Assembly (NCBI GenBank): GCA_964291495.2
Contig: OZ219868.1
Span: 32,001-96,000, forward strand
DNA from: Dehalococcoidia bacterium
GTDB lineage: Bacteria > Chloroflexota > Dehalococcoidia > UBA2979
Direction: 5' to 3'
DNA length: 64,000 bases
Program-made: the position numbers and the translations under genes
Shown here: positions 44,514 to 64,000 of the stretch, one piece after another
Position numbering within the stretch: the stretch's first letter is position 1
Layout of the letters: each line of letters begins with the position of its first letter
Notes under the pieces: model-generated
What the model saw: only the letters and a program-made list of their open reading frames with translations
The model's database searches: none
What the model was told of the DNA's origin: nothing

Positions 44514-45203
44514 ATGCAAGGATTTGCGCCGGTGACATTGGATGCCATCTTCCAGCTTCTCGCGACCGCTCAGTTCGGCGCCTACGTCATGTCGCTCGAT
44601 CAGAAGATCATCTTCTGGAATCAGGCCGCCGAGCGGATCCTCGGCTTCCCGCGCGACCAGGTGATCGGTCGCCGCTGCTACGAGGTGGTGACGGGGCTGA
44701 GCCCCGGGGGCTTCACGCCCGAGTGCCTGCTCGGCTGCCCGTCGCTCCGCTCACTGCGAGGCGGTGATATCCCGAGTGCGTTCACCATGCTGATGCTGTG
44801 CGAGTCCGGCGAGCGCAAGGCAGTTTCGCTCACGCCGATGGTGATCGCCGCTCCCGGCGAGGACACGCCGTTCCTGGTACACCTCTTCGACGAGCCCGCC
44901 GAGGACGAAGGAGCCGACCAGGCGGCCGATTCACTGCGGAGCGAGTTGCGTGAGCAGGGCGCAGCCATCGTGTCGGACCAAGCGCCGGCGACCTCGACTC
45001 CGTCTGATCTCGGCAGACTGACCCAGCGAGAGCTCGAGGTTCTGCGCCTGGTAGCCGCGGGCTGGGGCACGCATCGGATCGCCGAGGCGTTGAGCATCAG
45101 TCCGCATACCGTGCGCAACCACGTGCGCCACTTCCGCGGGAAGCTGAACGCGACGACGAAGCTCGATGCAGTCGTCACGGCGATCCGCCTCGGGATCCTG
45201 TAG
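44514..45203 (+). CDS. PAS-domain LuxR-family transcriptional regulator
   Basis: IIFWNQAAERILGF..DQVIGR.CY PAS motif; C-terminal LTQRELEVL...IAEALSISPHTVRNH LuxR HTH. Confidence 0.92.
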   Translation: MQGFAPVTLDAIFQLLATAQFGAYVMSLDQKIIFWNQAAERILGFPRDQVIGRRCYEVVTGLSPGGFTPECLLGCPSLRSLRGGDIPSAFTMLMLCESGERKAVSLTPMVIAAPGEDTPFLVHLFDEPAEDEGADQAADSLRSELREQGAAIVSDQAPATSTPSDLGRLTQRELEVLRLVAAGWGTHRIAEALSISPHTVRNHVRHFRGKLNATTKLDAVVTAIRLGIL

Positions 45204-45321
45204 TCGCATCGCAGGAGGTGGCCCGCTCGGCCCGCCCCGGACGCGCCAGCAACGGTCCGGATGAAGGTCATGCCGGGAAAGCAGTTCGCGTCGGCGGGCG
45301 CCTCAGCCGCCCGTTCCCCGA

Positions 45322-45350
45322 ATAGGATGGCAGCCTCGGATAGGATGGCA
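45322..45350 (+). promoter_or_regulatory. 11-bp direct repeat ATAGGATGGCA (18-nt period) immediately upstream of the MMPL start
   Basis: Copies at 45322-45332 and 45340-45350; each contains TAGGAT (-10-like); the ATG is at 45355. Confidence 0.5.
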
Positions 45351-45354
45351 CGCC

Positions 45355-47838
45355 ATGAGTAGGGTTCTCGCCAGGCTGAGCTGGCTGATCACCGTTCGCC
45401 CGTACCTCACGATCCTCGTGCTCTTCATCATCACCGTCGTGCTGGCCGCGGGAGCAGGGCGGCGCGCCCCGGTCGTGGAGGGCGCTGCCCTGGCCTTCCT
45501 GCCCCCGGGGAACGCCGTCGCCAATGCGATCGAGGAGATCGACACGCACTTCGGGGAGTCGAGCGACGTCGGCGTCGTCACGCTGATCTTCCGTGGGGAC
45601 GCACTCACTCCCGAGGGGCTCGCGCAGATGGACGGCCTGATCGGTCGCATCGCCGGCGATCCGGGCGTGGGGGAGCTGCTGGCGCACGGCGACCCGATCA
45701 TCGCGCCCACCCTGGTCATCAATGCCGTGCTCCAACGAGATGGCCTCGCGGCGGTCACGCAGGCGGAGATCGACGCCGCCCGCGCTGTCCCCGAGATCGG
45801 CGGGGCGCTCGACGCGATGACCGGAACCGACACCGACGGTACGCCGGTCGCGATAGCCACGATCCGCCTGATCAACACCGGGGACGAGCGAGTAAAGGAG
45901 GCCGAACGGCGGATCAACGAGCTGGCGATCGCGGACGAGGGCCCACTGCGCGTGAGCAGCGTCTCGCCGATCGTGGTCGAGGATGAGTACCGCAAGGCCA
46001 CCGAGGAGGGCATGGCGCCCCTGATCGGCCTGGCGCTGCTCCTGATCGCCGCACTGATCCTGGTCTTCCTCCGCACGCTTTCGGACCTGCTGCTCACGCT
46101 GGTCGGCCTGCTCCTCTCGCTGATCTGGGTGATCGGGGCGGAGGGCTGGCTCGGACCGAACGCGCTGGGGCTGATCGGCCCGCCGAGCTCGCTGACCGCA
46201 TTGGTGCCGATCATCGTGATCAGCCTCACCGTGGACTACGCGATCCAGGCCGTCTCGCACTACCGCGAGCAGCGCGCCGAGGGCGAGCCGGTGGTGGCGG
46301 CGGTGCGGATCGGACTGCAACACGTCACCGTCCCGCTGACCCTGGCCGCCGTCACGACGATCGCGAGCCTGCTGGTGAACCTGCTCTCCCCGATCGGGGT
46401 GATGGGCGACTTCGGCATCGTCGCCGGGCTCGGCGTGGGGATGAGCCTGATCGTGATGCTGACGCTGATCCCGGCCGGCCGGGTGATCATCGACCGGCGG
46501 CGCGAGTCGCGCGGCACGTTGACGCAGCCTCGCCAGGTCGCGAACGCCCTGCCCGGCATCGGCCGGCTGGCGGAGCTTCTCGGGACCTCGGTCGCGCGCA
46601 CCCCGGCGCCCTACTTCGTCGTCGTGATCGCGGTGACCATCGGGCTCGGGTACGCAGCCACGGGACTCGAGTCCGGGTTCAATATCCGCGAGATCCTTCC
46701 CCGGGGCGGCAGCGTGCTGAAAGACATGGAGACGCTCGACGCAACCGTCGGCGGCTCAACGGAGATGGCGAGCGTGCTCATCACGGCCGAGGCCACCGAG
46801 ACTCGCACGCTGCTGAACCTCCACGACCTCAGGATTGCCTTCGATGACGAGGCGCGTCGCCCGCCGGCGGCGGCGGGACCGATCCAGGTCTCCTACGAGT
46901 TACTCGTCAGCGACTGGACAGAGGACAGCGGCGCGCTCGGCGACAAGTACGATCCGGAGCTCGCAGCGCTCTTCCAGCAAGCCACCACGGGGGTGCAGCT
47001 CGACCCGATCGTGATGCAGGAGTTCCTCGACAAGCTCACGGCGAGAGATCCCACCCTCGCGCGTGCGCTTGTGAACGATCCGCAGGGCGTCGACGCCATG
47101 CTGGTCCAGTTCCCAGCCTACTCAGGGGATCCCGCAGTCACGAGGGAGCTGCAGGAGGACATCGAGGCGCTCTGGTTCGGCGACGACGGCGCGGTGACGG
47201 CGACCTCGCTGGACATCGTCGCGGTCGCGGTTACCGACGAGATCACCGGCCGGCAGACCCAGGCGATCAGCACGACCATCGCGGTGGCCCTCGGGATTCT
47301 CGCCCTCTTCTTCTGGGTGACGCTGCGCCAGCCGCTCCTGGCGGTTGTCGCGGTGGGGCCGATCGTGCTCGTCCTTATCTGGGTGCTGGGCACGATGGCG
47401 CTGCTCGACATCCCCTACACGCTGGTCACCTCGATCATCACGGCGCTCTCCATCGGGATCGGGGTGGACTACACGATCCACCTGATCCATCGCTACCGCG
47501 AGGAGTTCACCCGTGTGCGCAATCCGGAGCAGGCGGCGATCCGGACGCTGGCCACCACCGGCTCGGCGCTGCTGGGCTCCGCGCTGACGACGGCGCTCGG
47601 GCTCGGCGTGCTGGTGGCCTCTCCGCTGCTCGCGTCCCAGCAGTTCGGCCTCACGGCGGCGATCACGATCGCCTACTCGCTGATCGTGTCGATCCTCGTG
47701 GTGCCGCCCGCCATGACCGTCTGGGGCGCCTACCAGAACATGCGGCTCCGCTCGATGGTGGACCGCATGGCGGAGGAGCTGGACCTGGCGATCGAGGCGG
47801 TGCACCGCCGCCACGAGGAGGAGCAGGGCGCGCCGTAG
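45355..47838 (+). CDS. MMPL/RND family transporter, paralog A
   Basis: 827 aa, two RND repeats, LTVDYAIQ..HYRE and GIGVDYTIH..RYREE, GSALLGSALTTALG. Confidence 0.92.
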   Translation: MSRVLARLSWLITVRPYLTILVLFIITVVLAAGAGRRAPVVEGAALAFLPPGNAVANAIEEIDTHFGESSDVGVVTLIFRGDALTPEGLAQMDGLIGRIAGDPGVGELLAHGDPIIAPTLVINAVLQRDGLAAVTQAEIDAARAVPEIGGALDAMTGTDTDGTPVAIATIRLINTGDERVKEAERRINELAIADEGPLRVSSVSPIVVEDEYRKATEEGMAPLIGLALLLIAALILVFLRTLSDLLLTLVGLLLSLIWVIGAEGWLGPNALGLIGPPSSLTALVPIIVISLTVDYAIQAVSHYREQRAEGEPVVAAVRIGLQHVTVPLTLAAVTTIASLLVNLLSPIGVMGDFGIVAGLGVGMSLIVMLTLIPAGRVIIDRRRESRGTLTQPRQVANALPGIGRLAELLGTSVARTPAPYFVVVIAVTIGLGYAATGLESGFNIREILPRGGSVLKDMETLDATVGGSTEMASVLITAEATETRTLLNLHDLRIAFDDEARRPPAAAGPIQVSYELLVSDWTEDSGALGDKYDPELAALFQQATTGVQLDPIVMQEFLDKLTARDPTLARALVNDPQGVDAMLVQFPAYSGDPAVTRELQEDIEALWFGDDGAVTATSLDIVAVAVTDEITGRQTQAISTTIAVALGILALFFWVTLRQPLLAVVAVGPIVLVLIWVLGTMALLDIPYTLVTSIITALSIGIGVDYTIHLIHRYREEFTRVRNPEQAAIRTLATTGSALLGSALTTALGLGVLVASPLLASQQFGLTAAITIAYSLIVSILVVPPAMTVWGAYQNMRLRSMVDRMAEELDLAIEAVHRRHEEEQGAP

Positions 47839-47891
47839 GCAGCGAGCGACGGCGCAGCGACACGCCCCGGCCCCGCTGCGTCGGCAGTCTG

Positions 47892-48914
47892 CTAGAGGGG
47901 CTTTCGAGCGAGAAAACAGTAGAGCGGTGTGAAGATGCCTGCCTTGCCGCCCGCGACATAGGCATCCGCAGTCCGATCGAGCAGTCGGACGACTTCCGCG
48001 GAGCCCTCGGGAAACAGCCGCACCACTTCAGCCAGCCCCAGTCCTGCGATCAACGCCTTGCGGCCCCACGGAAGCCTGCGAAGGGCCGTTCCCAGCGTCC
48101 CGTGGCGGCTTTCCATGGGCTGATACCAGGGTGTGGATGGTTCCGTTGTGGCTCCTCGGTCTAGCCCTTCGATAACGTGGAACCCGGCCTCTTCAAGCGC
48201 GTGGTTCACCTCCCTGAACGTCGCGATCTCGTTCAGAGCAATCCCGCGCATCAGGTCCTGCTTGATGGCCTGATGGCGGCGGTCGTTCGGATCGAACGTG
48301 TCCGTAAGGCACATCTCCTGGCCCCAGAAGAGGGCTCCGGGCTTCAGCACGCGGAAGATCTCCTCGAACGCACCTTGCTTGTCCGGCGCGTGGCACGTTG
48401 ACTCGATAGCGTACCCGCCGTCGAAGGTGTCGTCCGCGATTGCGCCCATGTCCATGAAGCTGCAGGCGTGGTAGTCAACCATGTGGTCGAGCCCCGCCTC
48501 GGCGTTCAACCGTTTCGCCCTCTCCAACTGGATCGTGTTGATGTTGATGCCGACTACGCGGACGCCGGACTCGCGGGCGACGCGGCGCATGGGGCCGCCG
48601 ATTCCACAACCGACATCGATAACCGTCATGCCCTGCTGCAGCTCCAGCCGGGAGATCATCAACCGCTGATGCCGGACCTGGGACTCCTCGAGGCTCTCGG
48701 TTGGGGAGAGGGGCGCGAAGTGCAGGGACTCGCTCCAGCCCCACACCATGAATCCGCTGCACAGGTCGTAGTAGTCCTTGACCGTCTCCGTGTGGTCGTA
48801 CCCGGCTTCTGGCGCCGCCCGATCGATCCAGCCGTCGAAGCGCTGGACTCTGTGCCTGACGTCCGTTCCCCGGTACGCATCTCGCAGCTCTCTCGATAGC
48901 CTGCGCAACTGCAC
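47892..48914 (-). CDS. Sterol C-24 methyltransferase-like (ERG6/SMT1 family) SAM-dependent methyltransferase
   Basis: DYYDL, GWSESLHFAP, IDVGCGIGGP, YAIESTCHAP, EIFRVLKPG, PWYQP and C-terminal GGKAGIFTPLYCFLARKP, all SMT-type blocks; GTG start with GGAGGAG RBS. Confidence 0.85.
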   Translation of the reverse strand: MQLRRLSRELRDAYRGTDVRHRVQRFDGWIDRAAPEAGYDHTETVKDYYDLCSGFMVWGWSESLHFAPLSPTESLEESQVRHQRLMISRLELQQGMTVIDVGCGIGGPMRRVARESGVRVVGININTIQLERAKRLNAEAGLDHMVDYHACSFMDMGAIADDTFDGGYAIESTCHAPDKQGAFEEIFRVLKPGALFWGQEMCLTDTFDPNDRRHQAIKQDLMRGIALNEIATFREVNHALEEAGFHVIEGLDRGATTEPSTPWYQPMESRHGTLGTALRRLPWGRKALIAGLGLAEVVRLFPEGSAEVVRLLDRTADAYVAGGKAGIFTPLYCFLARKPL

Positions 48915-49045
48915 GCCCTGGCTCTCCTCCCCGATCGCGCCGATCGTGGTACGCGGTCTGGTCTAGCTGCCTGCTGAGGATGACGCCGATCTCCACGGGG
49001 TCGGGCCGTGGCGGTCGGCGACGGGGATGGTTCGCCGCGTCAGCG

Positions 49046-51091
49046 TTATGAGCTCGCGGCCGGCGCTGTGGGGATCTCGCGCCGCTGCTCGGCGATGTGG
49101 AACTTCAGCTTCTTGCTCACCGAGAGCGACGGGAACGGGTCGATCTTGAGCTTGTAGTTCCTGGGCGCCACCTCGATCGTGAAGTGGTGCGCGAGCAGCA
49201 GCAGGTTGACGGCGAGCTGCAGCTCCATCCAGCGGTTCCCGAGGCAGGTATGCGTACCCAGCCCGAACGGGGCGTACCCGGGGCTGAGGTGTTCGTTGCG
49301 CGGAGGCAGGTAGCGGTCGATGTCGAATGTCCACGGCTCCGGGAAGATGTCGCTCATGTAGTGCGCCGCTGCCTGGGCGATGAAGATCCGTGACCCCTCC
49401 GGGATTTCGTAACCCTCGACCACGCACGCATTCATCACGGTCCGGACGGACATCGGAACGATCGAGTACATGCGCATGGATTCCATGATGAAGCGGCGCG
49501 TCACGTCGATCGAGTCCTCCGTGAAGCCCTCGCGTCCGGGATCGCCGCCATCGAACAGGGCGTCCGCCTCTTCCCGGATCCTGGCGTAGAGCTCGGGCTG
49601 GGACGCCATCGCGTAGAGCGCGAAGCTCAGGCCATCGCCGAGGTAGACGCTGGCGATCAGCGGCGCGGAGAGGACGAAGCGCAGGTTCGACTCCGGGAGG
49701 AACGAAGGGTCGCTCGAGTGCAAGCTGAGCAGGTCGTCCGCGAGATCGCGGGGGCAGCCCGCCCGCTGGGCGGCCGTGTGGACACTCTGGACGCGCTCCA
49801 GCAGCACCTGGATGCTCTTTGCCCGGCGCCGCATTCCCGGGGTCTTGAGCATGAACTTGGGCATGACACCCAGGACGTGCGTGGACAGCGCCCGCGTCTT
49901 GTACTTGACCAGATCGTCCAGGACGTCCTGCGAGTCGACGCTGATCATCAGGGGCGAGATCTGGGAGTTGATCAGCTGCCGGCACATGGACACCGCGGGG
50001 CGAGTGTCTCCAACCTCCCAGGTCGCCATGTGTGACCGGGTGTGGTCGTAGAGATCCTCGAGTTGCCCTTCCAGCCTCGCGCGCGAGTACCCCGGCGCCA
50101 GGGCCTTGCGGAACCGGAAGTGATCGGCGCCGTCCAGCGCGGGCAAGATTCCCGATGCGCCATAGACCTTCTCGAAGTCCTGGAGATAGTCCCGGGCCCT
50201 CAGGTACGTGCGCCCCTGCCGATGCGCCCAGTAGTTCGTCTCCGACCCGGCCAGGACGAGCATGGGCTTCTGGAACGGCGGGTTGAGCTGGTACACGGGC
50301 CCGTACTGTTCGGCGAGATCCGCGAACAGTGCGGGGAGATTGCCGTCGCGAAGATGCCGGTGCAGCGCGAACTTGAGCAGCGGTACCTGGGGAATCGACT
50401 TCGTAAGGCCGGCACGTCCGATCAAGGGGACGTTCATGTTCTGGGTGACTGCCTCGGCGATCGCCCGCCCGATCAGGTCCATCCGGCAGACAAGCTCGAT
50501 GCGCTCCTCCAGCTCGTCGTCGAGCTGGAACATGAAGCGAAACACGTCACAGGTATTGACGAGGGCGACAATGATCACGTCACGAGGGTCGGGGATCTCG
50601 TTGTTGAAGAGCACCCTGCTGATGCGCGTCTTGACGAACTGGGCAGCGGTGCCTTCCCTCTCGCTGCTGAACATCTCGGTCTGCCATGCACGATTCGCAA
50701 GCGTCCAGAAGTCGCCTTCGTGATGCTCCAGGATCTGTCGATCAACCAGGCGCTCAAGCGTCAGGTCGATGATCGACTCTGCACGCGGCGCAAGCCGTTC
50801 GATCCAGTATTGCGCGTTTCGCTGCGTCGTTTCACTTGCAATCTGATCCAGAATGGGATCCAGAACAGGATTGCCGGTTTCCGTCTGGTCCAGAAGGATC
50901 AGGGAGTCCATGTCTGTATCGATACGAGATATGAGCGACAGCTCCGCAAGTGCGGCGCCGACGACGGCGCAGTTCAAGTGCCAGCCTGGTACCTGGTGAA
51001 AGTACCCGCTCTCTTCATTGAGCAGCATCAGGATGAGCTCTTCGGGCAAACTCAGCGCTTGAGTCGTCACGCGGTCGGTAGCGAGAGTCAT
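49046..51091 (-). CDS. GPP34 (GOLPH3/Vps74-like) domain fused to cytochrome P450, paralog A
   Basis: N-terminal SLPEELILMLL...GAALAELS...GNPVLD...WI..L...LERLVDRQIL; C-terminal ESMR (ExxR), FDIDRY, PFGLGTHTCLG heme ligand. Confidence 0.85.
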   Translation of the reverse strand: MTLATDRVTTQALSLPEELILMLLNEESGYFHQVPGWHLNCAVVGAALAELSLISRIDTDMDSLILLDQTETGNPVLDPILDQIASETTQRNAQYWIERLAPRAESIIDLTLERLVDRQILEHHEGDFWTLANRAWQTEMFSSEREGTAAQFVKTRISRVLFNNEIPDPRDVIIVALVNTCDVFRFMFQLDDELEERIELVCRMDLIGRAIAEAVTQNMNVPLIGRAGLTKSIPQVPLLKFALHRHLRDGNLPALFADLAEQYGPVYQLNPPFQKPMLVLAGSETNYWAHRQGRTYLRARDYLQDFEKVYGASGILPALDGADHFRFRKALAPGYSRARLEGQLEDLYDHTRSHMATWEVGDTRPAVSMCRQLINSQISPLMISVDSQDVLDDLVKYKTRALSTHVLGVMPKFMLKTPGMRRRAKSIQVLLERVQSVHTAAQRAGCPRDLADDLLSLHSSDPSFLPESNLRFVLSAPLIASVYLGDGLSFALYAMASQPELYARIREEADALFDGGDPGREGFTEDSIDVTRRFIMESMRMYSIVPMSVRTVMNACVVEGYEIPEGSRIFIAQAAAHYMSDIFPEPWTFDIDRYLPPRNEHLSPGYAPFGLGTHTCLGNRWMELQLAVNLLLLAHHFTIEVAPRNYKLKIDPFPSLSVSKKLKFHIAEQRREIPTAPAASS

Positions 51092-51246
51092 CCATCTTCC
51101 TCCCTGCCCGTCATCAAAATAGTGTAGGTCACGCGCTCAGGCCTCGCAAGGCGACATCCGTGAGACGTCCGGCCAGCCGTGCGGGGAACGCCCCGCTCCC
51201 GTATCCTGACTCCGTGCAGCGGACGACAACAGCGGGAAGGCAGGCC

Positions 51247-52629: not shown

Positions 52630-52778
52630 CGCCCGAGGGCCCTCGTCACAGGGGTCCGGCGGACCCCGCGGCGCGCACCGTTCGGCGTGCGACGAGCGGG
52701 TGACTCTCGTATTCTGGATCTGTGCCCGCTTTGCGGGGAGGCCGTCAACCCGGTATCCGGGGTGAGGAGGGCCGAGCG

Positions 52779-55993: not shown

Positions 55994-57982
55994 GTGAGCC
56001 ACCTGAGCCTGGCCGATAATCTGTGCCTGCTGATGCTCGATGACGCTTCCGGGAGCCTCTGCCGCCTCGAGGGGCGAACCCGAGACTTCGGCTTCGCGGC
56101 CGCGGTCCTGTTGGAGTTGGAGCAGCATGAACGCATCCAGACCCAGCCGGGCCTGCTGTCCGTCATCGATGCAACACCGCTCGGTGACCCCGTCGCGGAT
56201 CCGGTGCTCGCTGAGGTCGCGGACAGTGATCACTCGTCTCCGCAGGACTGGGTGCGACGTATTGGCTCTCGGTCCGGCTCGGAGATAGCCGCCGCCACCC
56301 TGGACCGGCTCGTAGCACGCGGAGTCCTTGAGCAGATACCGGGCGACCTGTTCTTCCTCCCGTCCGAGGTGGCGCGTTCACAGCGCTACCCGGGGGCAGT
56401 AGGCGGCGCTGACGAGGTCCGCATCCGGGTGATGCGGGCACTCTTTGGCGGCGACGCCCCGGATACATCCGATGCGGACCTGATAGGGCTCGCCGATTCC
56501 TGCGGTGTCTTCGGCGTCATCCTGAGCGCTGGCGAGTTCGACAAGGTGAGGGATCGGATCGGAGAGATTGCGCCACGCAACCCGCTGTGCCGAGCGGTTG
56601 AGCAGGCGGCGGCCGACGACCTGGCCGCGCAAGGGCCCTCGCGCGGGGCGTTCCCGCCGATACCCGAGGTCCGGGGGCTTCCGATCCTCGGCAACGCGGT
56701 GGGCATGGCCGGCAACCTGCAGCCATTCCTCGACAAGCAGTACAGGCGGCATGGTCCAGTTTTTGGTCTTCGAGTGCCGGGGAGACGCATGGTCGTCATG
56801 GCGGGCAAGGAAGCTGTTGCTTTCATGAAGGAGCATTCCCAGACGCACCTTCGCAGCAACCGGTCGTTCACTGACTTTCTGGACGCGATGGAGACAGATC
56901 GCTCGATCATCTCAATGGACGGTCACGATCACATCAAGCTCCGGCGCATCGCTCACGCGGGCTACAACGAGATGACCGTCGCAGACAACCTGTCAACGGT
57001 CATCGAGGTCACCCGCCGCGCCGTCGCCTCCTGGCCCACTGGACGACCGCTTTCGGTGTACCCCGCAATGCAGGAAATCGTGATTCCGCAACTCGGCGTT
57101 GTCGCAACCGGACTTGCGCCCACCGAATTCGTGGACGATCTCCGGTACTGGTTCGACTCGCTCGTGATTGCAATGCGTCGCGACCGTCCGAAGTTCATGG
57201 TCGAGTACCGGCTGCGCAAGGTGCGTCCCAGAATCAGGGAACTGTTCCACCGGGCCGTGGAGTTGCACGACCCCGAATTGCGCGATGGACGCCCTCGCGA
57301 CCTGCTCGATGAGTTCATGGACCTGCGGAGGCGGGATCCGCAGTTCCTTCCGGAGACCGACCTGGCCTCTTCCGTGGTGGCTCCATACATCCAGGCATTG
57401 GACCCCGTCGCCGGGACCTTGGGGTTCGCCCTGTTGCGCCTGTTGGCAGAGCCGCAGCATGCCGAGGCTCTCCAGGAGGAGGCCGATGAAGCGTTTGCCG
57501 CCGGGCTGGCGGATGCGGATGCCATTAGCGGACTGGAGAAGACGTACGCCTTCCTTGCCGAGGTCATGCGCTGCCACACGATCACGCCGGTGATGCTGCG
57601 CACGGCGTGCAACGCGTTCGAGTTCGAGGGCCACTGGGTGCCCGCCGGCACTTCGCTGTGGATGGCTCCGGGGGTGGTCCACAGCGACCCCGATCATTAT
57701 CCGAACCCCGAGCGATTCGAACCTGAGCGGCATTTGCCCCCACGCCTGGAATCCACGGAGCAGGGCGCGTTCGTCCCCTTCGGGGTCGGTCCTCACTCCT
57801 GCCTCGGAGAGTCGTTCGCCAAGGATCAGATGGCGGTGACGCTTGCGACCCTGCTGCACTACGCGGAGTTCGACCGCTATCCGAGTCGAGACAACCGCAT
57901 GAGGATCACTTCCTACCCTTCACTCCGTCCGCACCGCAAGAGCCGCGTTCAGGTGAAGCGTCAGCGGTCCGCCCAGCGGTGA
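55994..57982 (+). CDS. GPP34 domain fused to cytochrome P450, paralog B
   Basis: GTG at 55994 after GGAGGAGG; SLADNLCLLMLDD...AAVLLELE...GDPVAD...LDRLVARGVL; EVMR, PERFEPER, PFGVGPHSCLG. Confidence 0.85.
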   Translation: MSHLSLADNLCLLMLDDASGSLCRLEGRTRDFGFAAAVLLELEQHERIQTQPGLLSVIDATPLGDPVADPVLAEVADSDHSSPQDWVRRIGSRSGSEIAAATLDRLVARGVLEQIPGDLFFLPSEVARSQRYPGAVGGADEVRIRVMRALFGGDAPDTSDADLIGLADSCGVFGVILSAGEFDKVRDRIGEIAPRNPLCRAVEQAAADDLAAQGPSRGAFPPIPEVRGLPILGNAVGMAGNLQPFLDKQYRRHGPVFGLRVPGRRMVVMAGKEAVAFMKEHSQTHLRSNRSFTDFLDAMETDRSIISMDGHDHIKLRRIAHAGYNEMTVADNLSTVIEVTRRAVASWPTGRPLSVYPAMQEIVIPQLGVVATGLAPTEFVDDLRYWFDSLVIAMRRDRPKFMVEYRLRKVRPRIRELFHRAVELHDPELRDGRPRDLLDEFMDLRRRDPQFLPETDLASSVVAPYIQALDPVAGTLGFALLRLLAEPQHAEALQEEADEAFAAGLADADAISGLEKTYAFLAEVMRCHTITPVMLRTACNAFEFEGHWVPAGTSLWMAPGVVHSDPDHYPNPERFEPERHLPPRLESTEQGAFVPFGVGPHSCLGESFAKDQMAVTLATLLHYAEFDRYPSRDNRMRITSYPSLRPHRKSRVQVKRQRSAQR

Positions 57983-58184
57983 AGCCTGCCGGCGTAGCCC
58001 GCGGTGACCACGGAAGCCAGGGTTGGCCGCCCGCAGGGTCCGAGGTCCGCATGGCACTCGCCTGTTGGTGCGGGGCACGTCTCTCCCGTAGTCCGTGTAT
58101 CCGCGTCGTCGCGTGGTGGTCCGGTGGGCGGGTGGCGGCTGCACGGTGTCGAGCGGCCGCGCCGCTCACACGGAGTGGCGTGCG

Positions 58185-60809
58185 ATGAACCAGGCGCTCT
58201 CCCGTCTGACCTGGCTGGTCACGGCTCGCCCCTGGGTCACGATCTTCGTCCTCCTGCTGACTACGGTGGTGCTCGCTGCGGGGGCGGAACGGCGCGCGCC
58301 TGTGGTGGAGGGCGCAGTGCTCGCGTTCCTCCCACCCGGACACCCCATTGCGGAGGCGTCGAACGAAATCGACGAGCTCTTTGGGGATTCGGGCGAAGTG
58401 ACGGTTGTCACGATCATCTTCCGCGGGAATGCGTTCACGCCCGAAGGGCTCGCCCAGATGGATGCGCTCACCTGGGGCGTCCTTGCCGACGCACAGGTGG
58501 AAGCAGTGCTGGCGCCCGGTGAGTCAGTGATCGCGCCCTCTTTGCTCGTCCGGGAGGCGCTCCAGGTAGACAGCTTCGAGTCGGTCACGCAGGCGCAGAT
58601 CAACTCCGCCCTCGGTTCACCCGAGATCGAAGAGGTGCTGGCAGCGATGACCGCATCCGACGCAGACGGCAACCCTGTGGCGATCGCCACGGTGCGGCTG
58701 AGCGACGCGGACGAGCGGAAGGTCGCGGATGCGGAGAGGCGGATCAATGAGCTGACGGCCGGAAACGTGGGCCCGTTACGTGTGAGCAGCGTGTCGCCCG
58801 TTGTTGTCGAGGCCGAGTACAGAGACGCTACCGAGTCGGGGATGCTGCCCCTGATCGCGCTCGCGCTTGGGTTGGTCGCATCCCTGATCCTGCTGTTTCT
58901 GCGTACGCTCGCGGACCTCTTGCTCACGCTTCTGGGGCTATTCGTCGCCCTCATCTGGGTCGTCGGCGCGGAGGGATGGCTTGGGCCACATGGTCTTGGC
59001 TGGATCGGCCCGCCGAGCTCGCACAGCGCGATGGTCCCGATCATCGTGATCAGCCTCACCGTGGACTATGCCATCCAGACTGTCTCGAGCTATCGCGAGC
59101 AGCGAACCGCGGGGTTGCCGGTGGCCGATGCGATCGGAACGGGACTGGGACACGTCGCGATTCCACTGATGCTGGCTGCCGTGACGACGATCGCGAGCCT
59201 GCTGACGAATCTGTTCTCGCCCATCGGCGCGGTGGGCGACTTCGGCATCGTCGCGGGCCTCGGGGTTGGCCTGAGCCTGATCGTGATACTGACCCTGCTC
59301 CCAGCGGGACGGATGATCATCGACCGGCGGCGCGAGCAGCGCGCCACGCTCGCTCCGCCCCGTCCGGTCTCGAGTGCGCTGCCGGGCGTCAGGCGCGCTG
59401 CGGAGTTGCTGGGAACGTCTGTCACGCGCCGGCCGGCCCCGTTCATCCTTGTCGTGCTCGCGATCACGGTCGGACTCGGGTTCGCGGCCGCGCGGCTCGA
59501 GACCGGATTCGACATCCGCGACATCCTGCCAAGGGGCGGGACCGTGCTGGAGGACATCGAGACCCTCGAAGCCTTCGGCGGATCCACGGAGATGGCGAGC
59601 GTACTCGTGAAGGCGGAGGCGACTGACACCCGCACGTACCTGAACCTGAACGATCTCAGGGTTGCCTTCGAAGATGATCGGCTCCGGCCACAGGCAGCTG
59701 CAGGGCCCATCCACACCTCATACGAGCTGCTTGTGCACGACTGGACGCACGACAGCGGCGAAGAGGGCGACAAGTACGATGCCGGGCTCGCAGAGCTCTT
59801 CCGCCACGCTTCGGTCGGCCTGAGGCTGAATCCGGTGCTGCTCCAGGAGCTTCTCGACAGGCTGAAGGCGAAGGAGCCCGCCCTCGTCAGCGTACTTGCC
59901 GACAATCCCGATGGAATCGATTCGTTGCTGTTCCAGTTCCCGACCTTCTCAGGCGATCCCGAAGCAACAAGGGCGCTGCAGCAGGACATCGAAGCGCTGT
60001 GGCGAGAAAAGGACGTGAGCGTGACGGTTACGTCGCTGGACGTCGTTTCCGTCGCAGTCACGGATGAGATCACGCGCGGTCAGACGGCGGCGATCAGCAC
60101 GACGATCGCGGTAGCCATCGGCGTCCTCGCCATCTTCTTCTGGGTGACACTGCGGCAACCCGCGCTTGCATTCATTGCGGTGGTGCCGGTGGTGCTCGCA
60201 CTCATCTGCGTGCTGGGAACGATGGCGCTCCTGGACATTCCCTACAACCTGATCACATCCATCATCACCGCGCTCTCCATCGGGATCGGCGTTGACTACA
60301 CCATCCACATCATCCATCGCTACCGCGAGGAGTTCGCCCGCTCGCGCAGCCCGGAGCAGGCGGCGGTCAGCACGCTTGCAACCATCGGCTCGGCGCTGTT
60401 GGGCTCGGCACTGACGACGGCGCTCGGCCTCGGGGTGCTGGTGTTTTCGCCGCTGCTCGCTTCCCAACAATTCGGCATCACGGCGGCGATCACCATCGCG
60501 TACTCGCTGGTCATCTCCATCCTGCTCGTTCCGCCCGCGATGACGGTCTGGGGGTCGTACCAGAACATGCGGTTGCGCTCGATGGTGGAGCGACGTGGGC
60601 AGAGCTCGATGTGGCCATTGAGGATGCGTACCAGCGCCACGGGGAGAGAGCGGGCCTGGCCTAGGATGTTCCTGCCCGCCTGGTCCGGTACGAATGCGCT
60701 GAGGGGTGGGGAGCTCTTCGAAGGTCTGTCGGCGTCTCCGCTGTCCGCAGTCGGCGGTCGCGCGCCGGTCTGGTTGGTCAGGCTGATGTGCGCGGCGAGG
60801 TGCGGATGA
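58185..60809 (+). CDS. MMPL/RND family transporter, paralog B, with apparent frameshift near the 3' end (homologous end at 60664)
   Basis: ATG at 58185; collinear with paralog A to YQNMRLRSMV; the homologous tail AELDVAIEDAYQRH continues in the -1 frame to TAG at 60662-60664. Confidence 0.88.
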   Translation: MNQALSRLTWLVTARPWVTIFVLLLTTVVLAAGAERRAPVVEGAVLAFLPPGHPIAEASNEIDELFGDSGEVTVVTIIFRGNAFTPEGLAQMDALTWGVLADAQVEAVLAPGESVIAPSLLVREALQVDSFESVTQAQINSALGSPEIEEVLAAMTASDADGNPVAIATVRLSDADERKVADAERRINELTAGNVGPLRVSSVSPVVVEAEYRDATESGMLPLIALALGLVASLILLFLRTLADLLLTLLGLFVALIWVVGAEGWLGPHGLGWIGPPSSHSAMVPIIVISLTVDYAIQTVSSYREQRTAGLPVADAIGTGLGHVAIPLMLAAVTTIASLLTNLFSPIGAVGDFGIVAGLGVGLSLIVILTLLPAGRMIIDRRREQRATLAPPRPVSSALPGVRRAAELLGTSVTRRPAPFILVVLAITVGLGFAAARLETGFDIRDILPRGGTVLEDIETLEAFGGSTEMASVLVKAEATDTRTYLNLNDLRVAFEDDRLRPQAAAGPIHTSYELLVHDWTHDSGEEGDKYDAGLAELFRHASVGLRLNPVLLQELLDRLKAKEPALVSVLADNPDGIDSLLFQFPTFSGDPEATRALQQDIEALWREKDVSVTVTSLDVVSVAVTDEITRGQTAAISTTIAVAIGVLAIFFWVTLRQPALAFIAVVPVVLALICVLGTMALLDIPYNLITSIITALSIGIGVDYTIHIIHRYREEFARSRSPEQAAVSTLATIGSALLGSALTTALGLGVLVFSPLLASQQFGITAAITIAYSLVISILLVPPAMTVWGSYQNMRLRSMVERRGQSSMWPLRMRTSATGRERAWPRMFLPAWSGTNALRGGELFEGLSASPLSAVGGRAPVWLVRLMCAARCG

Positions 60810-60888
60810 TCGGGGCCGACACGGGGACAGATTCTCTCACCACGGCACGGCCGTTGGTGGCGTCCCGGGCTCTCGTGGGTCCCGGCAC

Positions 60889-62313
60889 TCAGCGGCGACG
60901 TTCGAGTCTCATCGGCATGCCGCCCTTCACCTTGAGGCTCATGCGAGGCACAACTTCCGCCTTGCCGGTCGCGTCGGCGCGCCAACGACGGCACAGGCTA
61001 GCCAGCGCGATCTTCGCCTCCATCCACGCGAAGCCCTCGCCGATGCACTGGTGTGGGCCTCCCCCGAAGGGGAAGTACGCGAAGCGCGGCAGCTCACTGC
61101 GGAACTCGTCCGTCCAGCGCCCGGGGCGGAACTCCAGCGGATCCTCGAACCAGCGCGGATCGCGCTGCGTGATGAACGGCGCTGCTATCACCGTGACGCC
61201 CGCCGGGACGTGGTATCCGCCCACGTCGATGGGCTCGTACACCATCCTGCCCAGCGCCCAGAACGGCGGATAGAGCCTCAGTGTCTCCGTGATGATCTGG
61301 TCGGTGAGGGGCAGCTGGGGCAAGTCGTCGAGTGTCACTTCGCGATCGCCCAGCACACCGTCCAACTCCGCATGGAACCGCTCTTCCACGTCGGGGTTCC
61401 GCGAAAGGAGATGGAACGCGTACGCGAGGGTCGTCGCCGTGGTGTCGTGCCCGGCGAGGTACAGAGAGACCGCCTCGTCACGCACCAGCTCGTCGCTCAT
61501 CCCGCCGGCGTCCTCGCCTTCCGCATCCTCGTACCTGGCCTGTAGCAGCATGCACAGCAGGTCGTCCCCCTCGGCCCCGGACTGCCGGCGTTCGCGGATC
61601 AGGCCGAAGATCAGGTCGTCCAGGTAGGCGCGAGCAGCCTTGAAGCGCCTCGAGGAAGGCAGCGGCAGACGATGGAGCAGGTGCCGCAGGAACACCGGCT
61701 GGGTCAGGCGGAGATACATGTACCTGTCGGCCTCCGCGAACGACTCACCCACGCGCCGGACCACCTCGCTCGTCTCGATATCGAACAGGGCCTTGGCCAC
61801 CATCTGGAGCGTCAAGTCCCGCATCTCCTGCTCCATGTCCACACTGGCGCCGTCCTGCCACTGCCGGGACTTCCGGGACGAGATGTCGGTCATCGCGTGA
61901 GCGTATTTCTCGATGAACCTGTGATGGAACCGGGGCTGTATCAGCCGCCGCTGCTGCAGGTGAAAGGCTCCCGTGGATGCGACGAGGCCGTCTCCCATCA
62001 TCCAGCGCACGGTCTCGAACGCAGCGGCGCCCCTGCCGGTATTCTGGTGGTTGGTCACCAGGACCTGCTGGTTGAGTTCCGGGTGATTCACGAGATAGAT
62101 CAGGATCGGCTTCATCGCCACGGTGCTGACATCACCGTACGTGGCGGCCTCCTGCAACAGACCAATCAAGTCGGACCGCAGGCGGAACGCCTGCCCGAGC
62201 ACTGGCAGCCCGGATGGCCCAGGGGGGCGTTCAGCTGACTGGATGGACGGTCTGGGAGGATCGGAGAGCGGCTCGGCGTTGGTCGTGACCGACTGTGCCG
62301 GGCGTGGCTGCAT
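60889..62313 (-). CDS. Cytochrome P450 (canonical stand-alone)
   Basis: PPGP, I-helix AGHDTT, ETLRLYPP, PLEFRPGRW, PFGGGPHQCIG; start is ATG 62313 or GTG 62349. Confidence 0.93.
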   Translation of the reverse strand: MQPRPAQSVTTNAEPLSDPPRPSIQSAERPPGPSGLPVLGQAFRLRSDLIGLLQEAATYGDVSTVAMKPILIYLVNHPELNQQVLVTNHQNTGRGAAAFETVRWMMGDGLVASTGAFHLQQRRLIQPRFHHRFIEKYAHAMTDISSRKSRQWQDGASVDMEQEMRDLTLQMVAKALFDIETSEVVRRVGESFAEADRYMYLRLTQPVFLRHLLHRLPLPSSRRFKAARAYLDDLIFGLIRERRQSGAEGDDLLCMLLQARYEDAEGEDAGGMSDELVRDEAVSLYLAGHDTTATTLAYAFHLLSRNPDVEERFHAELDGVLGDREVTLDDLPQLPLTDQIITETLRLYPPFWALGRMVYEPIDVGGYHVPAGVTVIAAPFITQRDPRWFEDPLEFRPGRWTDEFRSELPRFAYFPFGGGPHQCIGEGFAWMEAKIALASLCRRWRADATGKAEVVPRMSLKVKGGMPMRLERRR

Positions 62314-62580
62314 CACGCTATCCCGTTCGCCGGAGATGGCCGGCGCCACTGCGGGAGGCGAAAGCCCGGCGCGTCCAGCGATGCGAATCTGTGATCCTGC
62401 AATGGATCCTAGCTACCGGTTGTTCTGGTTTCGTCCAGCGAGGACCATCAGTTGTATAAAATACTGTGCAATGTCTTCAGCGAAGGGTATCCTCCCTCGG
62501 GGTGACTGCTACTGAGGGCGCCGGCTCCCATAACAGCCGCATATGCCCGCTGCTGAGGTCGAGATTCCGGGAAGGCGACT

Positions 62581-64000
62581 ATGACGGACGCTGATCAGCG
62601 AGACGCCGAGAACGGGGCCCTCCGACACCGGCTGTCCCGACTCAGCGAGGCCAGCCTCAGGATCAATGAAAGCCTCGATCTCGATCGAGTACTCCAGGGC
62701 GTCATGGAGAGCACGCGGGCGCTCACCGGCGCTCGGGCCGGCGTCATGCTGCTCTTCGACGACTCGCTCCAGGTCCAACACGCGCTCACGTCGGGGCTGA
62801 CGGTGGCGGAACAGGCGCAGTTGTGGCAGATGGAAGACGGGATGCTCCTCTTCAACCACATCGGCGGTCTCACATCGACGGTTCGGCACCCCGACTTCAG
62901 CGCGTATCTGAGGGACCTGGGGCTCCCGGACTTCGATTCCCCACTGGACGTGCACTCACCGCTCCCGTTTCTCTTCACTCCCATCACCTACGAAGGCAAA
63001 CCGATCGGCGCGATCTACCTCGGCGACAAGCCGACCGGTGAGGAGTTCACGCAGGAGGATGAAGAGACCCTCGTCATGTTCGCGTCCCAAGCCGCGCTGG
63101 TGATCGCGAACGCCCGCTACCACCGGGACGAGCGACGTGCACGCAATGACCTCGAGGCACTGATCGATTCCACCCCCGTGGCGGTGCTCGTGTTTGACCC
63201 AGGCACAGGCCTTCCGGTCTCGTTCAACCGCGAGGTTATTCGGCTGGCCAACGAGCTGAGCTCTCCGGATCAAAGCCCGGAGGACGTGCTGAAGGTCCTG
63301 ACGGTGCGCCGGGCGGATGGTGAGGAAGTCTCCCTCCAGGAATTGCCGCTGACGACCGCGCTGCGTACCGGCGAGACGGTGCGCGCTGAAGAGATCGCGC
63401 TCTCCGTCCCTGATGGGCGCAGCCTGACCGCACTGCTCAACGTCACCCCAATCCACTCGGAGGCGGGGGCGGTCGAGTCCGTGGTCGTCACGGTGCAGGA
63501 TTTGCGGCCTCTGGAAGAAGCAGAGCGCATGCGGGCCGAGTTCCTGGCCATGGTCAGCCACGAGCTGCGTACCCCGCTGAGTTCGATCCGGGGTTCCGCG
63601 GACACCCTGCTGGACGAACAGGCCGAGCTCCAGCCGGCCGAGGCGCGCGAGTTCTTCCGGATCATTCACGACCAGGCCGGGCGCATGCGCCGACTCATCA
63701 GCGACCTCCTGGACGTGGCCCAGATCCAGACCGGCAACCTCTCCGTCTCTGCCACGCCGGAAGAGGTACGCAACCTTGTGGACGAGGCGAGGAACTCCTT
63801 CGCGTCTTCAGGCGGCCAGAACAACATCCATGTTGAGCTGCCCCCGGACCTCCCGCTCGTGATGGCTGACCGCCCGCGTATCGTTCAGGTCATCACCAAC
63901 CTGCTGTCCAACGCTGCTCGCCACTCGCCCGACCTCTCGACAGTTCGACTGAGTGCCGAGTCCCGGGGCCTGCATGTCGCCGTTACCGTCTCGGACCAGG
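62581..64000 (+). CDS. GAF-PAS sensor histidine kinase, partial (runs off the window)
   Basis: Hand translation from ATG 62581: LSRLSEASLRINESLDLD (GAF), H-box FLAMVSHELRTPL (63541), N-box VITNLLSNA, all in one frame. Confidence 0.9.
   Translation, partial: MTDADQRDAENGALRHRLSRLSEASLRINESLDLDRVLQGVMESTRALTGARAGVMLLFDDSLQVQHALTSGLTVAEQAQLWQMEDGMLLFNHIGGLTSTVRHPDFSAYLRDLGLPDFDSPLDVHSPLPFLFTPITYEGKPIGAIYLGDKPTGEEFTQEDEETLVMFASQAALVIANARYHRDERRARNDLEALIDSTPVAVLVFDPGTGLPVSFNREVIRLANELSSPDQSPEDVLKVLTVRRADGEEVSLQELPLTTALRTGETVRAEEIALSVPDGRSLTALLNVTPIHSEAGAVESVVVTVQDLRPLEEAERMRAEFLAMVSHELRTPLSSIRGSADTLLDEQAELQPAEAREFFRIIHDQAGRMRRLISDLLDVAQIQTGNLSVSATPEEVRNLVDEARNSFASSGGQNNIHVELPPDLPLVMADRPRIVQVITNLLSNAARHSPDLSTVRLSAESRGLHVAVTVSDQ

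Follow-up and report, generated by a model that had tools for sequence, protein, structure and literature searches.

A conserved GPP34-P450 cassette of sponge-associated bacteria with a possible role in tailoring and exporting host-derived sterols

Positions 45355-53885 of the window (the whole 64,000-nucleotide stretch of Dehalococcoidia DNA analysed here) hold a conserved cassette of five genes, encoding an RND/SSD pump, an SMT-like methyltransferase, a GPP34-P450 fusion, an FAD enzyme and a KshA-like Rieske oxygenase. We lean towards reading it as one copy of a cassette for lipid tailoring and export that has been transferred horizontally among sponge-associated bacteria and that in this genome would act on exogenous sterol. 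Judged from gene content and genomic context, the source bacterium, a sponge-type member of the Chloroflexota that probably makes no sterols of its own, most likely takes sterol-like lipids from its host, modifies them and exports the products.

Results

The first-pass annotation had described an island of about 20 kb. All genes that it named were recovered in place as open frames with coding-type GC3, each with a Pfam match above the cut-off. They are arranged as follows:

44514..45203, + strand: PAS-LuxR (GerE) regulator (Pfam GerE 57.6 bits, PAS 31.7 bits)
45355..47838, + strand: RND1, HAE3/MMPL-type RND transporter with sterol-sensing-type domain (Pfam MMPL 147 bits, Sterol-sensing 44.6, Patched 38.3)
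47892..48914, - strand: divergent SMT-family enzyme of the 'SLHF' clade (Sterol_MT_C 61.7 bits, cut-off 21.7)
49046..51091, - strand: GPP34-P450 fusion no. 1 (Pfam GPP34 107.9 bits, residues 15-216; p450 132.3 bits, residues 244-660)
51160..52629, + strand: FAD-dependent amine-oxidase-fold enzyme (Pfam Amino_oxidase 66.9 bits, NAD_binding_8 47.2)
52722..53885, + strand: KshA-type Rieske non-heme-iron oxygenase (Pfam KshA_C 91.8 bits, Rieske 67.2)
53882..55228, - strand: MFS transporter (Pfam MFS_1 153 bits)
55820..57982, + strand: GPP34-P450 fusion no. 2 (Pfam p450 174.6 bits, GPP34 106.1)
58095..60809, + strand: RND2, MMPL/SSD RND transporter (Pfam MMPL 147.9 bits, Sterol-sensing 58.7)
60889..62349, - strand: stand-alone P450 of the terpenoid-oxidising type (Pfam p450 279 bits)
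62581..64000, continuing past the window to G000:C2:96980, + strand: fused sensor kinase-receiver-winged-helix regulator (Pfam GAF-PAS-HisKA-HATPase-REC-Trans_reg_C)

The lower GC of the island, also described initially, was borne out (0.61-0.69 against 0.72-0.74 in the flanks); GC3 is likewise lower, and a tRNA-Gln about 5 kb past the end of the window marks the end of the island. The MFS gene is a backbone gene and lies outside the cassette; it has a flank-like GC3 (0.93), shows synteny in the two nearest relatives only and has 16 paralogues in the genome. The real starts of fusion no. 2 and RND2 are probably near 55985 and at 58185, respectively, and the last ~20 residues of RND2 lie in another frame, where an RND1-like C-terminus can be read. 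A trio of GPP34, P450 and MMPL occurs three times in the source genome.

Fusion no. 1, which has the published GPP34_L architecture, is the anchor of the cassette. A relative of it is encoded in 552 of 599 candidate stretches of genome contigs (at least 552 relatives). Among the best 80 of these loci, genes for the Rieske oxygenase (65), the SMT (58), the RND pump (51) and the FAD enzyme (49) were found within 10 kb of the fusion. When only the 63 of the 80 loci flanked by 8 kb or more on either side and only neighbours of at least 50% identity were counted, Rieske was present in 52/63, SMT in 45/63, RND in 42/63 and the cassette FAD enzyme in 40/63 (73-85% identity). According to record titles, the best 80 loci belong to Chloroflexota/Dehalococcoidia (63), Nitrospirales (6), Latescibacterota (5), Opitutia (2), Binatia (2) and Gemmatimonadota-type bacteria (2), labels that span at least six phyla, with fusion identities of 67-95% across the groups. 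The genes are found together in many other genomes. The association weakens when the SMT is taken as the starting point: among 34 metagenome loci spanning 15 kb or more, GPP34-P450 was present in 21, Rieske in 14, RND in 6 and FAD in 6, and 12 contained only the SMT. No redox partner is encoded within the cassette.

Of the 20-kb unit proposed at first, the first module is conserved, but the second module, the PAS-LuxR regulator and the kinase-regulators fall outside the shared unit. The second module, which spans 55.8-64 kb and continues past the window, comprises fusion no. 2, RND2, the stand-alone P450 and two fused kinase-regulators; it is a strain-specific addition and lies beside the tRNA-Gln in a variable region. 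Its description as a sister of the first module is true of the pumps only, since RND1 and RND2 share 69% identity whereas the two fusions share just 30% and belong to different subfamilies. An orthologue of fusion no. 2 (76% identity) was found in one of 50 cassette genomes. The stand-alone P450 matches 3dbg best in the PDB (E 1.3e-68) and scores 301.6 bits against the NCBIfam albaflavenone monooxygenase (cut-off 700) and 299.2 bits against pentalenene oxygenase (cut-off 800); no homologue of at least 50% identity is present in the 80 loci. The predicted 'GAF-PAS kinase' is indeed a GAF-PAS-HisKA protein, but one of 799 aa in which sensor kinase, receiver and DNA-binding domain are fused and which runs past the window. 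It has four paralogues in the genome, a convergent one of 57% identity lying at C2:97701-100145, and none in the 80 related loci. PAS-LuxR homologues (at least 50% identity) occur in only 2/63 well-flanked loci, and the regulator is lineage-local.

The AF2 model of fusion no. 1 has a pLDDT of 78, and the heme-cysteine motif FGLGTHTCLG is present. None of the P450 domains falls into a sterol-specific family, and the top Foldseek hits of the P450 (fatty-acid-binding CYP184A1, M. capsulatus CYP51 and BM3) have similar scores. The GPP34 domain, which shows fold kinship with Vps74/GOLPH3 (profile E 1.6e-8 and 1e-7), has no hydrophobic segment, and the protein has neither a signal peptide nor a hydrophobic N-terminus. 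Columns aligned with R97, K178 and R181 of Vps74, which we take to be three of its four PI4P-contact residues, are non-basic in 22/22, 22/22 and 20/22 sequences, with moderate alignment confidence in this region. GPP34_L proteins, in which an N-terminal GPP34 is fused to a PF00067 P450, were described from sponge symbionts and proposed to be secreted PI4P-binding effectors (Ferreira et al., 2025, Microbiome, PMC11706023) that would bind host PI4P and block phagosome maturation; on this reading their gene neighbours would be unrelated. The proposal would agree with the Vps74/GOLPH3 kinship, with sponge symbionts being the only source of the architecture reported in that paper and with its expression there in metatranscriptomes of A. 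aerophoba. However, a GPP34 domain without the PI4P-binding basic residues argues against a phagocytosis effector, as do the missing secretion features and the tight linkage, seen in several phyla, of the fusion with a pump and four lipid enzymes, and a heme P450 dependent on redox partners in the cytoplasm would be an unlikely secreted protein. We consider the effector role quite improbable and prefer a role in lipid tailoring.

Concerning the source of the lipid, the first-pass annotation had seen no squalene synthase, squalene epoxidase or oxidosqualene cyclase in the window. The source genome (93.7% complete) has no SQHop_cyclase_C protein (squalene-hopene/oxidosqualene cyclase) and no squalene epoxidase. 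At this completeness a cyclase may have been missed in this genome taken alone; the six closest cassette genomes (G001-G005, G011), one of them a 3.2-Mb chromosome, also have no triterpenoid cyclase. As both the source genome and these relatives lack one, exogenous sterol, probably host-derived, is the likeliest substrate. In Nitrospirales, the cassette sits within a sterol-synthesis cluster: genome G009 carries the four cassette enzymes in a single block that also encodes a canonical SMT, an SdmA-like Rieske protein (407.5 bits), an ERG4/ERG24 protein, a squalene-epoxidase-OSC fusion and an MMPL/SSD pump, which supports the proposed link to sterols. An OSC-like gene is present in 8 of 50 cassette genomes (712-757 bits) and an ERG4/ERG24 reductase homologue (119 bits) elsewhere in the source genome; together with the SMT-containing sterol clusters known from sponge symbionts (PMC10070321, PMC9531527), these genes would suit an island belonging to a full pathway of de novo sterol synthesis. 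Against this stand the missing cyclase and squalene epoxidase, the nearest genomes without OSC and the absence of an SdmA equivalent from the island, and we regard such a pathway as extremely improbable here.

The closest named relatives of the methyltransferase are plant and fungal sterol C-24 methyltransferases (42% identity to a rice cycloartenol C-24 methyltransferase-like protein, 35% to a fungal ERG6 cluster), in line with its initial placement in the sterol family. Region I, the sterol-binding motif, reads GWSESLHF instead of the usual GWGxxFHF; it is altered in 129/129 members of the 'SLHF' clade, which has a support of 1.0 and a long stem (0.845) in the tree. The enzyme deviates at T78, G86 and F89, which are invariant among the SMTs with demonstrated in vitro activity. 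Owing to this departure from Region I of the active enzymes, C-24 methylation cannot be taken for granted with common sterols, and the cassette SMT may be inactive on them; the earlier assignment as a sterol-methylating enzyme holds for family membership, but not securely for this activity.

The altered motif and the long stem would also be expected if the cassette tailored a non-sterol lipid (a hopanoid, another polyprenyl or terpenoid compound, or a fatty-acyl or polyketide chain) and the sterol-like names reflected family ancestry. A hopene-type cyclase is encoded in 30 of 50 cassette genomes (3/3 sampled exceed the SHC cut-off), so that a hopanoid substrate is possible there. The best solved relative of the FAD enzyme, a putative lipid desaturase or oxidase, is the polyketide amide oxidase LkcE (E 2.7e-31), followed by a fatty-acid isomerase; the top structural match of the P450 binds oleic acid, the stand-alone P450 resembles sesquiterpene oxygenases, and a methylase followed by an FAD desaturase is the proven pair of furan fatty-acid synthesis (PMC7380195). 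Yet 20 of the 50 genomes, several of them chromosome-level and the source lineage included, have no strong hopene or oxidosqualene cyclase, the Nitrospirales cassette lies among OSC, SdmA-like and ERG24 genes, Sterol_MT_C and KshA_C are both steroid-associated, and the pumps carry sterol-sensing-type domains. A non-sterol substrate appears rather unlikely to us, and sterol tailoring is the reading that we follow.

In line with its first annotation as Neverland/KshA-like, the Rieske oxygenase carries the KshA_C steroid-oxygenase domain, and residues 33-360 match KshA (4qdc) with an E of 1.2e-22. It does not qualify as SdmA (34.3 bits, cut-off 600). A KshA-type enzyme could point to steroid catabolism, in which host sterols would serve as carbon source through ring opening and side-chain beta-oxidation, and the flanks encode a thiolase-like lipid-transfer protein with a ChsH2-type OB-fold partner, MaoC-like and enoyl-CoA hydratases and family III CoA-transferases. 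These CoA genes, however, show backbone GC3, and the thiolase-like and OB-fold genes are found in only 6/80 and 5/80 loci, mostly at 23-34% identity. Neither a methyltransferase nor an export pump is in keeping with catabolism, and the biosynthetic cluster around the Nitrospirales cassette also speaks against it; we judge it very improbable compared with tailoring.

Among NCBIfam models RND1 reaches 193 bits for HAE3 (cut-off 351.9), and it falls far below the curated cut-offs of HpnN (59.6/1100), BstA (46.5/1400) and MmpL3 (49/1400). Known relatives of RND/MMPL-type pumps export lipids. Sterol import, as originally suggested, is therefore unlikely.

Discussion

Taken together, the cassette may work in the following order. 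A sterol with an isolated double bond would be present in the cytoplasmic membrane, self-made in Nitrospirales and here derived from the host sponge or the diet. GPP34, without signal peptide or membrane helix, might take over the role of the usual N-terminal anchor and dock the eukaryote-type P450 on the membrane, and the P450 and the KshA-type Rieske oxygenase would then oxidise or desaturate the sterol. The FAD enzyme would introduce or shift a double bond, after which the divergent SMT-family enzyme would add a methyl group, its altered Region I pointing to a substrate or position other than that of ordinary C-24 SMTs. Finally, the RND/SSD pump would expel the product outward.

The component parts are already published, and no paper presenting the cassette as a unit was found; the initial impression of an undescribed gene set applies to the unit, but not to the GPP34-P450 fusion or to bacterial SMTs of sponge symbionts. 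With GPP34_L (PMC11706023) the cassette shares the fusion architecture: the source genome encodes two such proteins and, as that paper describes, one short GPP34_S protein that has a P450 within a few genes of it. In contrast to that account, whose main text contains none of the words 'sterol', 'methyltransferase' and 'MMPL', the fusion here anchors lipid enzymes and a pump.

Like the sponge-symbiont SMTs (Brown et al., 2023, PMC10070321; Brown & Welander, 2025, preprint), the cassette SMT belongs to the SMT family with Sterol_MT_C and SAM-binding Region II, and it comes from the same kind of metagenome (record prefixes LXNI01 and JGIcombinedJ30088 are common to both). It differs in forming a separate long-branch clade with GW[GSN]xSLHF and in lying in a genome without OSC. 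The 80 cassette contigs include none of the SMTs that the main texts of these studies name as tested; as this comparison covers main-text names, a clade member may have been tested.

The Rieske enzyme has the Rieske and KshA_C catalytic domains of KshA (3-ketosteroid 9-alpha-hydroxylase) and Neverland-type enzymes, with readable CxH...CxxH and DxxHxxxxH motifs; it is only distantly similar to KshA, has no KshB reductase nearby and stands in a biosynthetic or tailoring rather than catabolic setting. RND1 shares the HAE3/MMPL family and a sterol-sensing-type membrane domain with the lipid exporters HpnN, BstA and MmpL3, from which its low scores set it apart. The ERG24-CYP51-LSS steroid gene clusters of Ircinia symbionts (Kelly et al., 2022, PMC9531527) are, as described there, likewise horizontally transferred, sponge-enriched and spread over many phyla, often with an SMT alongside; in place of their cyclase, CYP51 and ERG24, the cassette has a GPP34-P450 fusion, a KshA-type Rieske oxygenase, an FAD enzyme and an RND pump.

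Gene content and layout of the island

The host genome comprises 3.08 Mb on 8 contigs (93.7% complete, 3.68% contaminated). Between 44.5 and 64 kb of the window, eleven open frames with third-position GC of coding type were found, each of them with a Pfam match over the cut-off. The GC content of this island was 0.61-0.69, compared to 0.72-0.74 in the left flank. The gene set that the first-pass annotation had named here was recovered in full as open frames with Pfam matches over cut-off.

Genes of the island (window coordinates, strand, product and supporting match)
44514-45203, +, PAS-LuxR regulator (Pfam)
45355-47838, +, RND1, MMPL-family pump (Pfam MMPL, sterol-sensing and Patched-type domain matches)
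47892-48914, -, methyltransferase (Sterol_MT_C 61.7 bits, cut-off 21.7)
49046-51091, -, GPP34-P450 fusion no. 1 (Pfam GPP34 and p450)
51160-52629, +, flavoprotein of the Amino_oxidase fold (Pfam)
52722-53885, +, Rieske protein with KshA_C (KshA_C 91.8 bits)
53882-55228, -, MFS transporter (Pfam)
55820-57982, +, GPP34-P450 fusion no. 2 (Pfam GPP34 and p450)
58095-60809, +, RND2, second MMPL/SSD pump (Pfam)
60889-62349, -, stand-alone P450 (Pfam)
from 62581, past the window end, +, GAF-PAS-HisKA protein (Pfam)

Read to its end, the GAF-PAS-HisKA gene encodes a protein of 799 aa in which a sensor kinase, a receiver and a winged-helix output domain are fused, and the gene is followed by a convergent paralogue with 57% identity. 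A fused kinase-receiver-regulator of the same architecture adjoins a hopene cyclase and hpnH in another Dehalococcoidia symbiont (G008, L086:10305-12776). The left flank (window 11900-24200 and 36164-44141) harbors many CoA-dependent lipid-catabolic genes, including three enoyl-CoA hydratases, one MaoC/FAS1-type hydratase and two family III CoA-transferases. It also encodes a thiolase-like lipid-transfer protein paired with a ChsH2-type OB-fold protein, an MMPL pump and a luciferase-like monooxygenase, and contains a patch of lower GC (0.64) at 14-17 kb. No RNA sequencing run was present among the runs matching sampled words, of which the top run contained 0.75 of the words and the others small shares.

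A conserved, mobile cassette surrounds fusion no. 1

Fusion no. 1 was used to scan one genome per prokaryote species, which yielded at least 599 candidate stretches, at least 552 of them encoding a relative. The best 80 of these at least 552 loci, in which the fusion relatives were 67-95% identical to fusion no. 1, were labelled as Chloroflexota/Dehalococcoidia (63), Nitrospirales (6), Latescibacterota (5), Opitutia (2), Binatia (2) and Gemmatimonadota-type MAGs (2). Within 10 kb of the fusion in these best 80 loci, homologues of the Rieske protein (65/80), the sterol methyltransferase (SMT; 58/80), the pump (51/80) and the flavoprotein (49/80) were detected. A stricter count, limited to matches of at least 50% identity in the 63 loci flanked by 8 kb or more on each side, gave 52/63, 45/63, 42/63 and 40/63, respectively, which bears out the proposed co-occurrence of these genes in other genomes. 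In the same set, the PAS-LuxR and MFS genes were found in 2/63 loci each and the kinase-regulators in 0/63. The regulators, which had been regarded as dedicated to the island, were therefore rejected as members of the conserved unit.

Gene order within the cassette was variable, the most frequent arrangement being seen 13 times. Reciprocally, 80 metagenome loci were found with the SMT. In the 34 of them that span at least 15 kb, a GPP34-P450 was present in 21, the Rieske gene in 14, the pump and the flavoprotein in 6 each, and the SMT stood alone in 12. Linkage from the SMT side is thus weaker than from the fusion side. As the genes are conserved near the fusion, yet more loosely linked when approached from the SMT, the cassette is real but not obligatory. 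Taken together, the core (window 45355-53885) is a conserved, mobile cassette. The MAGs with the nearest fusion relatives have names that match those of sponge data sets, and prefixes of sponge metagenomes occur on contigs found from the SMT side.

In L020, the nearest complete relative, the SMT gene (L020:12139-13166, corresponding to window 47892-48913) is inverted relative to its neighbors and shows 82% nucleotide identity, versus 87-91% for the flanking genes, which suggests a local rearrangement or replacement. In addition, a 477-aa database protein (P0018, 9 member sequences) joins a cassette SMT to a KshA_C segment; it may be a genuine fusion or may result from two genes being called as one.

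Module 2 lies in a variable region

Synteny between the window and its two nearest relatives, L020 and L007, extends from 39.4 kb as far as the MFS gene (~55.3 kb), beyond which the sequences part; in L020, it resumes at a tRNA-Gln and an MscS gene. In the window's own genome this tRNA-Gln (G000:C2:100923-100996, L004:6923-6996) is located beyond the window, is followed by MscS and LysM genes, and forms the far edge of the variable segment holding module 2. L020 keeps the tRNA-Gln with 98.8% identity, but the segment between the tRNA and the MFS gene differs in content; among other things, a Rieske-domain protein of 588 aa is encoded there. Of 50 cassette genomes, a single one, a Binatia MAG, encoded an orthologue of fusion no. 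2 (76%), and the matches ranking after it reached 35-40%. Given the break in synteny and the rarity of this orthologue, module 2 is specific to the strain and was added to a variable region that borders a tRNA.

The cassette methyltransferase diverges from standard SMTs

Sterol_MT_C (PF08498) was matched at residues 276-339 of the cassette protein with 61.7 bits (cut-off 21.7), and no second gene with this domain was found in the genome. The main text of the Brown & Welander preprint gives DxGxGxxGP as the SAM-binding Region II of SMTs, and the cassette protein reads DVGCGIGGP at this site. According to the same text, Region I (GWGxxFHF) is kept in every SMT active in vitro. Here the sterol-binding Region I reads GWSESLHF. 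Leucine occupied the F89 column in 129/129 homologues with at least 60% identity, and phenylalanine was kept in 11/14 more distant paralogues, including those in oxidosqualene cyclase (OSC) clusters. Judged by its sequence, the protein belongs to the SMT family; on the same grounds it is not a standard SMT, since GWSESLHF replaces the motif conserved in SMTs active in vitro. Some SMTs are described in the preprint as inactive on desmosterol and 24-methylenecholesterol, and the clade with the altered Region I (SLHF clade) is a candidate for substrates other than these two.

To place the protein among named relatives, 1.84 billion proteins were searched; of the 150 representatives listed, 10 were followed to their clusters, 5 of which had a name. 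The closest named relative among these 10 was a rice protein of the cycloartenol C-24 methyltransferase-like type (42%, E 2.9e-68), and an ERG6 cluster from Cladosporium showed 35% (E 8.5e-53). Bacterial SMTs from sponge symbionts have already been published; none of those named in the main texts of PMC10070321 and the Brown & Welander preprint lies on the 80 contigs. In a FastTree phylogeny of 130 sequences, the cassette SMTs formed a 25-tip clade with a support of 1.0 and a stem of 0.845. The tree was rooted on a fungal ERG6 representative, as midpoint rooting was uninformative. P0214, P0220 and P0233, which have leucine at the F89 column and fall elsewhere in the tree, were left out of the clade test.

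Rieske protein, flavoprotein, pumps and P450s

KshA carries out 9-alpha-hydroxylation of 3-ketosteroids together with the reductase KshB. The cassette Rieske protein has the KshA-type domain pair (Rieske 67.2 bits, KshA_C 91.8 bits) and its best PDB relatives are KshA structures (E 1.2e-22), while no reductase gene was found in the island. An identity as SdmA was ruled out, as the protein scored 34.3 bits on NCBIfam NF052579 (cut-off 600) with the Rieske domain only. Among solved structures, LkcE was closest to the flavoprotein, and a fatty-acid isomerase came second. In furan fatty-acid synthesis, a lipid C-methylase and a FAD desaturase acting after it have been proven to work as a pair (PMC7380195). 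The protein atlas returned only generic Rieske/KshA_C and amine-oxidase clusters, which serve as leads; a cluster bearing the name cholesterol 7-desaturase did not outscore the rest.

The pumps are HAE3/MMPL-like, with 193.4 bits on the HAE3 subfamily (cut-off 351.9). They stayed far below the curated cut-offs for MmpL3, BstA (46.5 versus 1400) and HpnN (59.6 versus 1100). RND1 and RND2 are 69% identical, and the two fusions 30%. In the RND2 gene call, the final ~70 residues (window 60540-60810) have no match in RND1, and an RND1-like C-terminus (AELDVAIEDAYQRHGERAGLA) is readable in another frame near the RND2 3' end, which looks like a frameshift or an error in sequencing. The genome encodes one more RND/SSD paralogue, the third, with 68% identity to RND1, at G000:C1:59306-61783 (L203:7306-9783), among frames without Pfam match and another ChsH2-type OB-fold protein.

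The P450 domains contain the heme-cysteine motif. Sequence searches, NCBIfam and Foldseek on the AF2 model gave generic E-class matches only, so that no assignment to CYP51 or another sterol-specific P450 family was possible.

The GPP34 domain as a possible docking module

GPP34 and PF00067 are joined in one polypeptide in two proteins of the island, with 107.9 and 106.1 bits for GPP34, and the family alignment extends over the full length. The same architecture is known as GPP34_L, which Ferreira et al. 2025 (PMC11706023) describe as exclusive to sponge symbionts and propose to be a secreted PI4P-binding effector; sterol, methyltransferase and MMPL are not mentioned in the main text. A PDB search with the single GPP34 sequence was weak (E 0.37), and a profile of 22 GPP34 domains matched Vps74 (E 1.6e-8) and GOLPH3 (1e-7).

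We take W88, R97, K178 and R181 to be the PI4P contacts of Vps74, and chain 4tu3_A has the expected residue type at each of these four positions. At moderate alignment confidence, the R97 column (V/A/I) and the K178 column (E/G/D) were non-basic in 22/22 domains and the R181 column (I/V/A/Q) in 20/22. On this presumed list and at that confidence, the basic contacts of GOLPH3/Vps74 proteins are absent. Two conserved arginines, R99 and R103, are located near these columns. Neither a signal peptide nor a hydrophobic segment was detected in the fusion. In the AF2 model (pLDDT 78, pTM 0.67) both domains are folded, their relative placement not being firm. The combination of GPP34, a P450 and an MMPL pump is found at three places in the genome, in modules 1 and 2 and on contig C5. 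Based on the non-basic contact columns, the lack of a signal peptide or hydrophobic segment and this recurring trio, GPP34 probably serves to dock the P450 to the membrane or to lipid. At the C5 locus (G000:C5:29287-35247, L005:9287-15247), the gene for a short GPP34-only protein comes directly before that of an MMPL transporter, after which an ABC1 kinase and then a P450 are encoded.

Sterol and hopanoid cyclases in cassette genomes

Cyclases were searched in 50 of the 80 cassette genomes, and a strong match to a triterpenoid cyclase was obtained in 30 of them. Three of these cyclases were sampled, and all three were squalene-hopene cyclases exceeding the curated cut-off (684-773 bits versus 431), one of them adjoining hpnH. 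On the OSC model, none of the 50 genomes reached the cut-off of 851. A second cyclase scoring 712-757 bits on this model, versus 146-291 for the hopene type, was present in eight genomes (five Nitrospirales, two Tepidiformaceae and one Dehalococcoidia). The remaining 20 genomes, several of them chromosome-level assemblies, had no strong cyclase.

The window's own genome, 93.7% complete, gave no match to PF13243 (cyclase) or PF08491 (squalene epoxidase, SE), in line with the earlier suggestion that the lipids are not made de novo. The combination of OSC and SE that marks a de novo bacterial sterol cluster is hence missing from this genome. The six closest cassette genomes (G001-G005 and G011) gave no match to these two families either. 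Since neither cyclase nor SE was matched in the genome or in its six closest counterparts, an outside source of the substrate is the simplest reading for this lineage. An ERG4/ERG24-family sterol-reductase homologue (119 bits) is encoded at G000:C1:9112-10251 (L202), adjoining a short-chain dehydrogenase, in this genome without any cyclase.

In the Nitrospirales genome G009, the OSC-like gene encodes a 1269-aa SE-cyclase fusion and forms a single block together with the cassette. First in this block come GPP34-P450, the cassette SMT (76%), a KshA-like Rieske protein, an outer-membrane beta-barrel and the flavoprotein. These are followed by a second SMT (44%), an unknown 403-aa frame, an SdmA-like Rieske protein, an ERG4/ERG24 gene, a small frame and the SE-cyclase fusion, with an MMPL/SSD pump a few genes beyond. 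The SdmA-like protein reached 407.5 bits on NF052579 (cut-off 600) and is present in addition to the cassette Rieske protein. This block is the strongest evidence for the cassette acting on sterols. SE and OSC-like cyclase in a single open frame of 1151-1269 aa were observed in G009 (L090:15522-19331) and five further genomes, the fusions occurring in sponge-type Nitrospirales and one Tepidiformaceae genome. One such protein contains SE, FAD_binding_3 and both SQHop_cyclase domains.

Possible function and comparison with known systems

The presence of the cassette in bacteria without a sterol or hopanoid cyclase points to symbionts editing host sterols. In its most explicit form, which we consider rather improbable, sponge symbionts unable to make sterols would take up host sterols, use the SLHF-clade SMT, the FAD desaturase, the Rieske protein and the docked GPP34-P450 to build unconventional 'sponge-specific' side chains or nuclei, and return the products to the host through the pump. 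One example would be a methyl transfer to a position that differs from that of the usual C-24 step. If so, part of the 'sponge' sterol/sterane biomarker signal would stem from editing by bacteria, and GPP34-P450 would belong with the sterol enzymes and not with the phagocytosis effectors. Editing by symbionts matters for the question of which organism produces the unusual sponge sterols and for the reading of side-chain-alkylated steranes as animal biomarkers.

Each part of this system is already published, namely the sponge-symbiont SMTs, GPP34_L and the steroid gene clusters, the latter reported for Ircinia symbionts in PMC9531527. In the literature searched, no paper joining the three was found, and GPP34 is absent from the titles and abstract starts of the papers retrieved on sponge-symbiont SMTs and OSCs. 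For GPP34-P450, the cassette suggests a metabolic role that can be tested and that would replace the effector hypothesis, and it joins two separate signatures of sponge symbiosis, the GPP34-P450 fusions and the bacterial SMTs, in one conserved gene unit.
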